Source: a virus
Direction: 5' to 3' (one strand)
IMG/VR virus record: IMGVR_UViG_3300023179_000096
Location: 5,935 to 69,934 of that record
DNA: 64,000 bases
Shown: in pieces, positions 1,661 to 6,307 of the stretch
Position numbering within the stretch: position 1 is the stretch's first letter
Layout of the letters: each line of letters begins with the position of its first letter
Notes under the pieces: model-generated
What the model saw: only the letters and a program-made list of their open reading frames with translations
The model's database searches: none
Told to the model about the DNA's origin: nothing
Translations under genes and position numbers: made by a program

Positions 1661-2341
1661 ATGAGTTTTAATCATGTACAGCTTGAATTAGAAGCACCTA
1701 AACTGCAGCAGATAAACGAAGATGGAACTCGTTATTATGTTACCCCGGAAGGTAACAAGTACCCTTCTGTAACTACCGTTTTATCTGCGTACAATAAAAA
1801 AGCAATTTTTGAGTGGCGTAAGCGTATAGGGGAAGAAGAAGCTAACAGAATATCAAAACAGGCATCTTCACGGGGTACTCGAATACATTCTTTATGTGAG
1901 TATTACTTAGCTAATAAGCAGCCGGAATTTAAATCTCCGCATGATTTAGAACTATTTAATAGTTTTAAACCGGTTCTACACCGCATCAATAATATTTACG
2001 CTCAAGAAATCAGAATGTATTCTGATCATCTTCGTATAGCTGGTACGGTTGATTGTATAGCAGAATTTGATAGAAAGCTGTCTGTAATAGATTTTAAAAC
2101 CGCACGGAAACCTAAACGAGAGGAAGATATTGAGAATTATTTTATGCAGGCAACTGCTTACGCCATTATGTTTGAAGAGCGGTTTGGTATTCCTGTAAAT
2201 AGAACCGTTATAGCAGTTGCTGTTGATGAAGATGAACCTCAAGTGTTTATAAACAAAAGAGATAGTTATGTAGAGCCTTTAATTTATTTTCGGGATCTTT
2301 ATGAAAGTAAATCTGGATTTACATACGAGAATTCCTTATAA
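1661..2341 (+). CDS. PD-(D/E)xK exonuclease
   Basis: YPSVTTVL, RGTRIH, AGTVDC, IDFKT, YFMQATAY. Confidence 0.85.
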   Translation: MSFNHVQLELEAPKLQQINEDGTRYYVTPEGNKYPSVTTVLSAYNKKAIFEWRKRIGEEEANRISKQASSRGTRIHSLCEYYLANKQPEFKSPHDLELFNSFKPVLHRINNIYAQEIRMYSDHLRIAGTVDCIAEFDRKLSVIDFKTARKPKREEDIENYFMQATAYAIMFEERFGIPVNRTVIAVAVDEDEPQVFINKRDSYVEPLIYFRDLYESKSGFTYENSL

Positions 2342-2382
2342 TTATAATATGTTAATATTTAACCTAAGCCTATATATTTTAT

Positions 2383-2695
2383 TGCTGTATGAAGCGAAAA
2401 GAAAAGTGTTCTGGACGCGAGTTCGAATCTCGCCTGGTCCACCAAAAGGAGATATGATGAATCCAGCTTATGTAATATCAGGTATACTGTTATTAACGGC
2501 TATTCTTGTACATGTCTTTTTTTGATGGGCCAGTCATGGTTTCGACAGGGCAAAGAGTAACAGAGTGGACAGCACGGTAGGCGATGACCGTAAATCAAGC
2601 AAAACCACAGTCGCAAACGATGAAGTTTACGCATTAGCAGCTTAAACACTGCTTAGGGTTTCGATGGGTTTCCTCGTAACAGAATAACCCATCAC
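2383..2695 (+). ncRNA. ssrA: Circularly permuted (two-piece) tmRNA
   Basis: Acceptor piece first: T-arm GCGAG-TTCGAAT-CTCGC, then CTGGTCC-A-CCA (2417-2444). Coding piece starts GGGCCAG (2527-2533), which pairs with CTGGTCC including G3:U70. CAGGGCA/TGTTCTG and ACAGCA/TGCTGT pair the two pieces. Tag ANDEVYALAA* at 2613-2645. Outer ends approximate. Confidence 0.93.
2454..2525 (+). CDS. 22-23 aa hydrophobic peptide inside the tmRNA intervening segment
   Basis: AAGGAG at 2446-2451, ATGATG at 2454-2459, MMNPAYVISGILLLTAILVHVFF, TGA ending 2525. Confidence 0.55.
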   Translation: MMNPAYVISGILLLTAILVHVFF

Positions 2696-2729
2696 AATAC
2701 AACACTCATAACACACAAAGGAGATTAAA

Positions 2730-3062: not shown

Positions 3063-3599
3063 ATGGTAAATTATATTTTTTACTGGGTACTAAGAATTGC
3101 AGCTGGTATTGCGGTATTTTATGCTGTGGTGCTTGTTACAAACTATAGATTTGATAATTTAAAGACCAACAATAGTAATCAAAAATATGTAACAATGGCT
3201 GAGAGAGAAAAACAACTTGTTTGTTTAGCTAAGAATATATATTTTGAAGCAGCTACAGAGCCCTTCGAAGGTAAAGTAGCCGTAGCTCAAGTAACATTAA
3301 ATCGCGCTGAGTCTGGAAAATTTCCTCAAGATATTTGCGATGTAGTTTTTCAAAAGACACGATTTTTAGATAAGGTGGTATGTCAGTTTTCTTGGTATTG
3401 TGAACCTGGGCCTAAGGTAGTAAGGTCTAATCAAAATTACACGGAATCTGAACTAGTAGCAAAGAAGGTGCTTCTTGAAAATTTTAGACTCCCTTCATTA
3501 GAAAAAGCTATGTATTATCATGCTGACTATGTTAACCCTAATTGGAACAAACCTAAAATTACTAAAATTGGCCGACATATTTTTTATGGAGAACGATAA
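3063..3599 (+). CDS. SleB-like cell wall hydrolase with N-terminal TM segment
   Basis: CLAKNIYFEA, VAQVTLNR, CQFSW, YYHADYVNPNW, IGRHIFY. Confidence 0.9.
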   Translation: MVNYIFYWVLRIAAGIAVFYAVVLVTNYRFDNLKTNNSNQKYVTMAEREKQLVCLAKNIYFEAATEPFEGKVAVAQVTLNRAESGKFPQDICDVVFQKTRFLDKVVCQFSWYCEPGPKVVRSNQNYTESELVAKKVLLENFRLPSLEKAMYYHADYVNPNWNKPKITKIGRHIFYGER

Positions 3600-5383: not shown

Positions 5384-6307
5384 ATGGCACTAGATTTTTC
5401 TGCTTTGAAAAAGCAACGTGGATCTTTCGACAGTCTAATGAAGGAAGTTGAAAAGATTGCAACTCCTCAGACTACTGAAACTCAAAAAGATGATCGCTTC
5501 TGGTCATTAGAAGTAGATAAAGCCGGCAACGGTTATGCAGTTATTCGATTCCTCCCACCTACTAAAGGTGAAGACCTCCCATGGGTTCGTATCTGGAATC
5601 ACGGCTTTCAAGGCCCTACCGGTAAGTGGTATATTGAAAATTCCCTTACAACCCTGAGTAAACCTGACCCCGTTTCTGAACTGAATACCGAGCTTTGGAA
5701 TTCAGGTACAGAAGCTAATAAGGAAATTGCTCGAAAACAAAAGCGACGTCTTACTTACATTGCGAATGTTTATATTGTTAAGGACCCAGCCCACCCTGAG
5801 AATGAAGGTAAGGTCATGCTTTATAAATTCGGTAAGAAAATCTTTGATAAGATTAAGGACGTAATGCAACCTCAATTTGAGGATGAAGATCCAATTAACC
5901 CGTTCGATTTCTGGAAGGGTGCAAATTTTAAACTTAAGGCTCGTAACGTCGAGGGATATCGCAACTATGATAAGTCTGAGTTTGAAACTTCTTCTCCTTT
6001 GTCGGAGGATGATGCATCTCTAGAAAAGATTTGGAATAAGCAATATTCTTTGAGTGAGTTTCTTGATCCTAAGCACTTCAAGTCGTACGAAGAACTAAAA
6101 TCAAAGCTTGAACAGGTGCTGTCAGCTTCTGGCTCTGCACCAGCTCGGGTTGATCGAGTAGAACTAGATGAAGATATTTCTCGTCAAGTATCTACAGGTT
6201 CTAAAATGACCTCTAAACCTATTAAAGCCGTTAAGCAAGAAGAAGTAGACCTTGATGACGAGGATGAGTCATTATCCTACTTTGCTAAATTAGCAAACGA
6301 CGAGTAA
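5384..6307 (+). CDS. 32: Single-stranded DNA-binding protein gp32
   Basis: DKAGNGYAVIRFLP, HGFQGPTGKWYIENS, FDFWKGANFKLK, acidic C-terminal tail. Confidence 0.97.
   Translation: MALDFSALKKQRGSFDSLMKEVEKIATPQTTETQKDDRFWSLEVDKAGNGYAVIRFLPPTKGEDLPWVRIWNHGFQGPTGKWYIENSLTTLSKPDPVSELNTELWNSGTEANKEIARKQKRRLTYIANVYIVKDPAHPENEGKVMLYKFGKKIFDKIKDVMQPQFEDEDPINPFDFWKGANFKLKARNVEGYRNYDKSEFETSSPLSEDDASLEKIWNKQYSLSEFLDPKHFKSYEELKSKLEQVLSASGSAPARVDRVELDEDISRQVSTGSKMTSKPIKAVKQEEVDLDDEDESLSYFAKLANDE

Follow-up and report, generated by a model that had tools for sequence, protein, structure and literature searches.

Organization of the permuted tmRNA locus

The window analyzed here is a stretch of 64,000 nucleotides (nt), positions 5,935 to 69,934 of IMG/VR record IMGVR_UViG_3300023179_000096, itself a 69.9-kb fragment of a virus genome. 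At positions 2383-2708 it carries a transfer-messenger RNA (tmRNA) gene in the permuted, two-piece form, with the acceptor piece upstream of the coding piece, and this report concerns the 82-nt intervening segment, or spacer, between the two pieces, which is filled by an open reading frame (ORF) that we regard as a putative micro-gene for a membrane peptide. ARAGORN placed a permuted tmRNA at 2352-2736, with the tag ANDEVYALAA, and Rfam was concordant, scoring the locus above the gathering cut-offs of both RF04321 (tmRNA_permuted; 136.1 bits versus 47, span 2383-2645) and RF01850 (beta_tmRNA; 120.4 bits versus 84, span 2338-2708). All features described below lie on the plus strand. The acceptor piece (2383..2444) is bounded by the RF04321 start at 2383 and by the 3' tRNA domain that ARAGORN puts at 55-93 of a gene starting at 2352; the 3' half of the tRNA-like domain (2406-2444) comprises the T-arm, the acceptor 3' strand CTGGTCC, the discriminator A and an encoded CCA at 2442-2444. 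The coding piece (2527..2708, by ARAGORN and Rfam) opens with the 5' tRNA-like strand (2527-2553), which starts GGGCCAG, and contains the tag reading frame (2613-2645), whose ANDEVYALAA ends in ALAA and is followed by a stop. In the acceptor stem, GGGCCAG (2527-2533) pairs with CTGGTCC (2434-2440), the third pair being G.T (G3.U), and a G3.U acceptor-stem pair is the alanine identity element.

The spacer (2445..2526) lies between the CCA end of the acceptor piece (TCCACCA, ending at 2444) and the GGGCCAG that starts at 2527; it begins AAAGGAGATATGATG and ends CATGTCTTTTTTTGAT. A Shine-Dalgarno (SD)-like AAGGAG at 2446-2451 is followed by ATG codons at 2454-2456 and 2457-2459. The micro-ORF (2454..2525 including TGA), whose frame is intact in homologues, comprises 23 codons from the first ATG or 22 from the second, and the translation of 2454-2522 is MMNPAYVISGILLLTAILVHVFF. 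ATG 2457 has the better spacing, 5 nt after AAGGAG, whereas ATG 2454 follows it by only 2 nt; AAGGAG, ATG 2457 and the TGA at 2523-2525 together form a small ORF with an SD-like element 5-10 nt before its start and an in-frame stop. Between the TGA and GGGCCAG (2527), with which the coding piece opens, there is a single nucleotide, T 2526. An earlier note on this DNA, made from the letters alone, had described an 82-nt spacer with AAGGAG, ATGATG, a hydrophobic ORF and a TGA 1 nt before GGGCCAG, and all of these elements are present at the coordinates it gave. AAGGAG also precedes at least five long ORFs of the window, where a core SD occurs in 23 of 57.

The encoded peptide is strongly hydrophobic, with a grand average of hydropathy (GRAVY) of 1.86 and a run of 19 residues without any D, E, K, R, N, Q or P, and it is most likely a single-pass membrane peptide, as predicted from its composition. 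Its frame is also open upstream to an ATG at 2301 (ORF 2301..2525). A second frame, of 22 codons (2389..2457), starts from the conserved GTATGAAG of the acceptor piece, and its stop (TGA 2455-2457) overlaps ATGATG. This frame is probably not a gene in the window; in sister spacers described below, the equivalent frame carries an Oxidored-like domain. The ATGA-type overlap between the stop of the acceptor-piece frame and the ATG of the spacer ORF recurs in spacers of the L139 and L202 types and is not seen in the L190 and L044 types.

Spacer diversity and enrichment of ORFs

Using the exonuclease gene upstream of the tmRNA as a query, we collected 68 related viral loci, 53 of which had a permuted tmRNA just downstream, and a scan for the acceptor-piece pattern yielded at least 120 further loci, with a permuted tmRNA in 104/120. 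Together with the window's own locus these gave an unbiased sample of 158 viral tmRNA loci, whose spacers, 126 of them unique, range in length from 4 to 211 nt. In 20/20 loci tested with Rfam the tmRNA was confirmed, and no other RNA family was matched in those 20. The spacer is hypervariable, even among phages whose neighboring gene is 70-82% identical to that of the window, and is of three kinds: almost nothing (4-11 nt), long and nearly perfect hairpins, or SD-led small ORFs. One and the same cargo family can occur with several different acceptor stems. These observations are best explained if, in this lineage of tmRNA genes from uncultured aquatic phages, the spacer serves as a slot for hypervariable cargo, with small SD-led ORFs in about one quarter of the variants.

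We next asked how often an ORF fills the spacer. Spacers were grouped by crude greedy k-mer clustering, and 18 of the 93 clusters (<60 nt) were dropped, leaving 75. An ATG-initiated ORF covering at least 80% of the spacer was found in 21/75 clusters, whereas dinucleotide shuffles predict 5.9 and the reverse strand has 2; homologous pairs among the 21 are L041/L136, L144/L153 and L001/L139. An SD-like 4-mer within the first 10 nt was present in 14/75 clusters, 11 of which had a long ORF (Fisher p=1.6e-5), and 2 of the 3 SD-bearing clusters that lacked a long ATG-ORF were the Oxidored-like spacers. A typical coding spacer starts NAAGGAGATT, resembling the ribosome-binding sites of ordinary genes in the window. 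With respect to how the ORFs end, the stop is the conserved T(G/A)A, separated from GGG by 1 nt, in 8 of the 21 clusters and lies further inside in 2, whereas 11 reach GGG without a stop, 7 of them with the sequence ..GAT-GGG... Spacers without a stop before GGG include those of L041, L136, L172, L186, L187, L003, L092, L110 and L070.

The slot was also inspected in a genome-collection scan, in which, among the matches listed, 24 permuted tmRNAs were found, mostly in Accumulibacter and other Rhodocyclaceae. Spacers of 3-5 nt accounted for 19 of these 24 and hairpins of 28-38 nt for 4, and a single tmRNA, L284, bore an ORF. L284 comes from a contig of a metagenome-assembled genome binned as Haliscomenobacter. 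Its beta tmRNA is of the phage type, with the tag ANDEQFALAA, and its 84-nt spacer codes for a window-type peptide, so the contig probably belongs to a phage and ended up in a Bacteroidota bin. Since 23/24 genome-collection spacers among the matches listed are only 3-38 nt long and lack an ORF, the ORFs look like an addition of the viral lineage.

Several other spacer types were seen. The longest, of 304 nt (L195, L201, L207, L212 and L215), contain two ORFs each, namely an SD-led 49-codon ORF and a relative of the 159-nt-family membrane peptide described below with a longer C-terminus. Non-coding spacers of L079, L080 and L161 contain GGGTTCGANNCCC-like stretches that resemble fragments of a tRNA T-arm; in L079, the only one of the three scanned with Rfam, the tmRNA itself was the sole match. 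An abundant 44-nt hairpin spacer (L058 type, 13 loci) begins AATG and stays open for 16 codons, probably by chance.

Selection on sister spacer ORFs

We measured the ratio of non-synonymous to synonymous polymorphism (pN/pS) in families of spacers other than that of the window. The 109-nt Oxidored-like family (11 unique sequences, 17 loci) had a pN/pS of 0.22 in the coding frame versus 1.24 and 1.06 in the other two frames. Likewise, the 159-nt family, which encodes a 38-residue membrane peptide (6 unique), gave 0.26 versus 0.86 and 1.73, and the 98-nt family (4 unique) gave 0.32 versus 0.93 and 1.55. For the 97-nt family (5 unique) the coding frame gave 0.20, with the other frames undefined because synonymous changes were absent. 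The earlier note had proposed that related spacers be compared for a conserved SD, a conserved ORF and synonymous-biased substitutions; SD-like starts, conserved ORFs and such a bias were indeed found in several families, lending support to its suggestion that the spacer is a mini-mRNA for a small membrane protein.

Some of these ORFs also have recognizable relatives. The 109-nt class, though not the window, matches PF09791 (Oxidored-like; L004:1023-1157, E 6.2e-9, 35.9 bits versus a cut-off of 24). Oxidored-like spacers comprise this 109-nt class (17 loci; for L004, tmRNA region 966-1160 and spacer 1022-1130) and a diverged 115-nt spacer in L121, which share the motif CCGxGCxxCVW. Both types have an SD-like start but lack any ATG, GTG or TTG before the domain. 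In each, the domain shares its frame with the ATG of the conserved GTATGAAG, which lies ~55 nt upstream and close to where the acceptor piece presumably begins, and this frame continues into the coding piece. L003 is the closest relative of the window by its neighboring gene (82% identity), yet its spacer is quite different: the ORF of this 186-nt spacer (L003:3209-3442) aligns with the last 54 positions of phrog_4098 (E 1.1e-10). When the 159-nt-family peptide was searched as a profile, 72 representative homologues were retrieved at E<=1e-3 among 1.84 billion proteins, and some of these plainly continue from or into a tmRNA. For one of the matches, P0030, relatives were located in 15 fetched viral loci, and all 15 lacked a tmRNA by ARAGORN or Rfam. 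In 5 of these 15 free-standing loci (L381-L385) the peptide gene lies ~80 nt after a tRNA-Asp gene (445-521), beside a tRNA-processing site. The only name attached to protein clusters was 'hypothetical protein', and an Atlas look-up of a 38-residue relative returned unnamed clusters only, with scores of <=0.83. The matches to PF09791 and phrog_4098 and the free-standing homologues indicate, by sequence similarity, that sister spacer ORFs are members of genuine families of small proteins, which are encoded by ordinary genes as well.

In a PHROG search, the genes around the window tmRNA were the PD-(D/E)XK-type exonuclease used as a query above (phrog_298), two endolysin-like genes and a single-stranded DNA-binding protein (SSB). 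The endolysin-like genes (968-1648 and 3063-3596; phrog_181 and phrog_938) flank the exonuclease-tmRNA pair, and an 89-codon ORF (2730-2999) with a strong SD and no PHROG match lies directly 3' of the tmRNA. The endolysin-like neighbors prompted us to consider a holin or lysis role for the spacer peptide; this was rejected as unsupported, since relatives with the same neighboring gene hold quite different spacers.

Homologues of the window peptide

Relatives of the window spacer itself were sought from both ends. A 3'-anchored scan, comprising the spacer end and the start of the coding piece, returned 26 viral and 35 metagenome loci (34 usable); every usable locus carried an ORF ending Phe-Phe-stop, in a scan that fixes the last three codons only. 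A scan anchored at the 5' end returned 29 loci, including 14 permuted tmRNAs (12 by ARAGORN, and L402 and L412 by Rfam), and all 14 keep the hydrophobic ORF through to the TGA. ARAGORN detected no tmRNA in the other 15, and the 5 of these checked with Rfam were free of matches. Nine non-tmRNA loci, of the L386 type, have TCCACCA followed by AAAGGAGATATG and an ORF of ~24 codons. Altogether, homologues of the window peptide were found in ~20 distinct spacers, and the frame was never interrupted. These spacers measure 79, 81, 82, 83, 84 or 93 nt and encode peptides of 22-25 residues with a hydrophobic core in common and a C-terminus of the form H-(V/I/F)-(F/Y)-F.

Several features of these spacers bear on the reading frame. 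A start codon is in frame with the fixed TGA in 6/6 length variants (5 ATG and 1 TTG). All 8 unique sequences of the short type have 0 stops in the ORF frame, 3-6 in the +1 frame and 0-1 in the +2 frame, and T occupies codon positions 1, 2 and 3 at frequencies of 28, 69 and 47%, respectively, in these sequences. The 93-nt relatives had a pN/pS of 0.29 versus 0.42 and 2.33 in the other frames. Between the window and its closest spacer relative, L390, 8/69 ORF positions differ, 4 of them synonymous and 4 conservative (pN/pS 0.31), and L402 and L412 differ by 3 synonymous and 0 non-synonymous changes, the counts in both comparisons being tiny.

The spacer of the window is 90, 80 and 80% identical to those of L390, L402 and L412, respectively; for the mature pieces the corresponding values are 79, 70 and 70% (acceptor piece) and 64, 59 and 49% (coding piece), and Rfam scores L402 and L412 as alpha-type tmRNAs. 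A spacer that is better conserved than the mature tmRNA suggests either selection of its own or a cassette that moves between tmRNA genes. In L390, ARAGORN reads an unusually long tag of 28 residues ending VALAA. Among isolate phages, tblastn with the 159-nt-family peptide found nothing and blastn with the tmRNA region gave three weak partial matches only; we know of no cultured relative in the isolate-phage collection.

The closing stem and alternatives to a micro-gene

Minimum free energy and centroid folds both predict that the ends of the window spacer are paired. The 5' strand of this closing stem, AAAGGAGATATG (2445..2456), holds the SD-like AAGGAG and the first ATG and pairs with 2511-2522 in either fold. 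Its 3' strand, CATGTCTTTTTT (2511..2522), consists of the last four sense codons, His-Val-Phe-Phe, and is indicated by covariation as well as by the predicted folds. As RNA, AAAGGAGAUAUG (2445-2456) pairs with CAUGUCUUUUUU (2511-2522), with the CAU codon opposite AUG. The predicted hairpin has a free energy of -19.8 kcal/mol (z = -3.05), and 0/200 shuffles fold as well. The last four letters, TGAT (2523..2526), are conserved family-wide and comprise the stop of the ORF and the -1 nucleotide of the presumed RNase P site.

To place the window stem in context, the 118 unique spacers of at least 40 nt were surveyed. Pairing between spacer positions 1-10 and -5 to -14 is seen in 91% of cells, compared to 46-54% in a shifted register, and many compensatory changes are present, as exemplified by GATATG/CATATC in L139 versus GACATG/CATGTC in L194. 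The last four bases are TGAT in 92/118, TAAT in 8/118 and TGAC in 6/118, and the first four are AAAG, TAAG or GAAG in 76/118, whether the spacer is coding or not. Thus, all spacers, coding or not, are predicted to be closed by a 10-12-bp stem abutting an ACCA/TGAT internal loop beside the acceptor stem. The earlier note had stated that a ribosome-binding site and the ORF exactly fill the spacer; the fit is real, but it is partly a by-product of this family-wide closing stem and of the conserved TGAT.

Such pairing bears on whether the spacer and the tmRNA pieces form one unit. If the two pieces were transcribed apart, the ORF would be an ordinary small gene in the gap between them, and some relatives do have gaps of 159-304 nt that contain one or two ORFs with their own SD. 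A consensus scan, however, found no promoter-like site within 2445-2526; the sole such site (2318-2345) lies upstream of the acceptor piece and is not above chance. The spacer hairpin and its U-run were not flagged as an intrinsic terminator. The ends of the gap pair beside the acceptor stem in the great majority of cells, as noted above, relatives with gaps of 3-11 nt leave no room for a promoter, and two-piece tmRNAs are described as products of one precursor in the available portions of PMC9004378 (citing Keiler 2000). We regard separate transcription units as very improbable.

A number of observations weigh against a genuine micro-gene. Taken singly, the window ORF is statistically unremarkable: ~7.7% of 300 dinucleotide shuffles of the window spacer give an ATG-ORF covering at least 80% of it. 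The 5' AAG and the TGA are family-wide and occur in non-coding spacers too. The SD and both AUGs are predicted to lie inside the 12-bp stem, which would hinder initiation, and because the codons of the C-terminal His-Val-Phe-Phe have to pair with the SD/AUG strand, this ending is no sign of constraint on the peptide. Neither the window subfamily (8 sequences; pN/pS 0.86 versus 0.49 and 1.09 in the other frames) nor its 4 nearest sequences (0.61 versus 0.66 and 2.26) single out the coding frame. Relatives of the L139 type have a poor SD (AAAAAAGAT), and the L202 type has no in-frame ATG, its start being a TTG 6 nt after GGAG, while the ATG present there opens a 5-codon frame; the L202 type accounts for 6 loci in the 3'-anchored scans and 9 in the 5'-anchored scan, some of them from one contig. 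As for the enrichment of ORFs, the clustering was crude and the 21 ORF-bearing clusters collapse to ~14 solid families; L151, L092, L082 and L137 lack an SD, have their ATG at nt 2-8 and show shuffle frequencies of 0.18-0.26. Finally, the window peptide had 0 matches in Pfam (E<=1), PF05635 included, and in PHROG (E<=0.01), and tblastn with it found 0 matches among isolate phages.

Several of these points favor an alternative in which the spacer is a non-coding processing hairpin, and AAGGAG, ATG and the open frame are by-products of a stem made of a purine-rich strand and a U-run, of TGAT and of a U-rich loop. The closing stem and TGAT occur family-wide, including in obviously non-coding spacers, the window fold beats all 200 shuffles, the single-sequence probability of the ORF is ~0.08, the SD and AUG are sequestered and the peptide has no family match. 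Left unexplained by a processing hairpin are the 3-nt periodicity (T at 28/69/47%), the keeping of the frame across 6/6 length variants, the synonymous-only differences between L402 and L412, and the association of an SD with long ORFs. In addition, spacers with an ORF fold less stably per nt than the others (median -0.222 versus -0.246 kcal/mol/nt, p=0.009). We consider this alternative unlikely, and about equally unlikely, if marginally less so, is a second one, in which the ORF is translated and the peptide is incidental: translation would act in cis as a gate on the folding and processing of pre-tmRNA, such that tmRNA output follows ribosome availability. The two processing sites coincide with the start and stop signals, the closing stem is built from the SD/AUG strand and the final codons, the ORF reaches the last 4 nt of the spacer or beyond in 19/21 ORF-bearing clusters, and the residues of the window subfamily are loosely constrained beyond hydrophobicity (pN/pS 0.86), all as a gate would have it. 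On the other hand, sister ORFs are under clear protein-level selection and their families exist outside tmRNA genes; most members of the tmRNA family have non-coding spacers and the sampled bacterial relatives have spacers of 3-5 nt, such that no gate is required; and hydrophobicity and T at codon position 2 (69%) are kept across diverged relatives.

Taken together, the enrichment of ORFs, the SD association, the selection on sister ORFs, the homologues with their intact frame and the high conservation of the window spacer relative to the mature tmRNA suggest that the spacer probably carries a genuine nested micro-gene for a putative 22-23-residue single-pass membrane peptide. The suggestion in the earlier note of a mini-mRNA needs to be qualified in one respect, as the spacer is no simple open mRNA, its SD and both AUGs being predicted to be base-paired. 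The other branch of that suggestion, by which ribosome loading competes with RNase P and 3' maturation, is presumably not needed to make tmRNA, because many relatives have non-coding spacers or spacers of 4-11 nt.

A model for expression of the micro-gene

Expression of a nested micro-gene could be reconciled with maturation of the tmRNA as follows. The acceptor piece, spacer and coding piece would be made as one transcript from one promoter. RNase P, which we take to cut at the 5' end of the tRNA-like domain, would cut 5' of G2527, and this cut together with 3' maturation after A2444 would release an 82-nt hairpin-closed RNA, whose 5' strand would comprise the SD and AUG and whose 3' strand would comprise the last four codons, followed by the stop. 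The terminal stem may protect the released RNA, but it would also lock the SD and AUG. Translation would consequently be gated, occurring either co-transcriptionally, while the ~60 nt that precede the 3' strand are being made, or once the stem has opened. A ribosome footprint reaches roughly 15 nt to either side, and an initiating ribosome would cover the CCA and the acceptor 3' strand, while a terminating ribosome would cover the acceptor 5' strand. Covering both acceptor strands in this manner would make translation and tmRNA maturation alternatives on one molecule. Once translated, the peptide would insert into the membrane, and we take it to be a candidate accessory membrane peptide of the phage, moron-like or type-I-toxin-like in format.

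Metatranscriptomes offered a limited view of such transcripts. Six runs were searched, in which only 7-8% of sampled words were present, and the contigs of four were examined. The window spacer was not covered in these contigs, which matched conserved tmRNA parts only and evidently derive from relatives or hosts. In one contig of an RNA library, X16, a different spacer, of 81 nt, lies between an acceptor piece and a coding piece, although DNA carry-over is possible and contigs cannot show RNA ends.

The arrangement of stops raises a further, more speculative scheme. After the RNase P cut the window message would end ...UGA-U-3', and 11/21 ORF-bearing clusters lack a stop before the cut, such that most of the spacer messages would be non-stop or near-non-stop mini-mRNAs. 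Non-stop RNA ends are the kind on which tmRNA acts. It is conceivable, albeit rather improbable, that the spacer messages are built-in substrates of the flanking tmRNA, with one tmRNA and one mini-mRNA of this kind arising from each precursor. Depending on processing and on how active the tmRNA is, the peptides would then either receive the phage's own tag or be released without it, and a scheme of this kind could serve as a timer, as a protease decoy or as a route that takes a membrane peptide to FtsH or ClpXP. As a second part of this rather improbable scheme, the Oxidored-like spacers may be translated from the acceptor-piece AUG straight through the tRNA-like domain of the unprocessed precursor.

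Implications and comparison with known systems

The spacer of a permuted tmRNA is usually regarded as processing waste, and gene callers skip it, as it lies inside an RNA gene and its ORFs are tiny. For specialists, the surprise would be that this 'waste' segment of a tmRNA gene is a conserved and widely used slot for micro-genes. If the ORFs are translated, then the precursor of a stable RNA doubles as an mRNA in which tRNA-processing enzymes act as punctuation, and aquatic phages possess a hidden reservoir of micro-proteins in a predictable place, containing membrane peptides, the Oxidored-like domain, and zinc-ribbon-like and basic peptides. Translation would likewise turn a stop that stands at the RNase P site, or is missing before it, into a natural system for studying competition between ribosome, release factor and tmRNA at an RNA 3' end. 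For annotation, spacer ORFs could be included in the output of tmRNA finders, and surveys of small proteins could be extended to the interiors of RNA genes.

Two-piece tmRNAs as such are already known from phages. In the available portions of two papers, they account for 53/133 unique phage tmRNAs of one survey, mostly aquatic (PMC9004378), and arise from one precursor that is cut by tRNA-processing enzymes (PMC11915505, PMC9004378). According to PMC11915505, the inserts of permuted-tmRNA spacers include a tRNA-Ala gene and a repetitive element, and tmRNA genes can contain group I introns, some of which encode homing endonucleases. PMC9004378 describes a glutamine riboswitch in the two-piece tmRNA gene of phage Melnitz. 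The term 'ORF' does not occur in the main text of PMC11915505, a 2025 tmRNA database paper, nor does 'intervening' in the available text of PMC9004378. We found no report of a protein-coding permuted-tmRNA spacer in the full-text literature, a search from which most subscription journals fell outside, such that an earlier mention is possible.

Among the systems just described, the intron homing endonucleases (PMC11915505) resemble the spacer ORFs in that a protein-coding sequence lies in a removed segment of a tmRNA gene; they differ in being carried by a self-splicing intron, located in the T-loop, whose own mobility the protein promotes. Here, the carrier is the permutation spacer, presumably cut out by tRNA-processing enzymes, and the cargo is tiny and diverse. 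The tRNA-Ala, repeat and riboswitch inserts likewise indicate that foreign sequence is tolerated within tmRNA genes and that additional functional elements are present in the two-piece genes of phages, but those inserts are RNAs.

Further parallels lie outside tmRNA genes. The intervening sequences of 23S rRNA contain ORFs (the '23S rRNA-intervening sequence protein', PF05635) and are processed by RNase III. They share with the window a stable-RNA gene whose excised, stem-closed segment holds a small ORF, and differ in host RNA, processing enzyme and protein family, the window peptide being without a Pfam match. Type I toxin mRNAs (hok, ibs, aapA1) encode tiny hydrophobic peptides of ~20-50 residues, with an SD locked by pairing of the 5' and 3' ends. 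The window peptide is similarly tiny and purely hydrophobic, with an SD predicted to be locked by pairing of the ends of a short RNA; it shares no sequence similarity with these toxins, no antisense RNA partner came to light, although no search aimed at one was made, and the locking stem is common to non-coding spacers, where it probably serves processing. A type I system is defined by an antisense or overlapping RNA antitoxin and by toxicity on expression, in addition to the small hydrophobic peptide. We thus liken the peptide to type I toxins by format and 5'-3' closure only and do not file it as a member. Lastly, SgrS/SgrT and RNAIII/delta-haemolysin are dual-function RNAs, in which, as proposed here, one transcript provides a functional RNA and a small peptide; there, a single mature RNA does both, whereas in the phage precursor the coding part would be separated from the functional RNA. 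The general idea of a gene in an excised segment of a stable RNA, and of a transcript that is RNA and mRNA at once, therefore has precedents.

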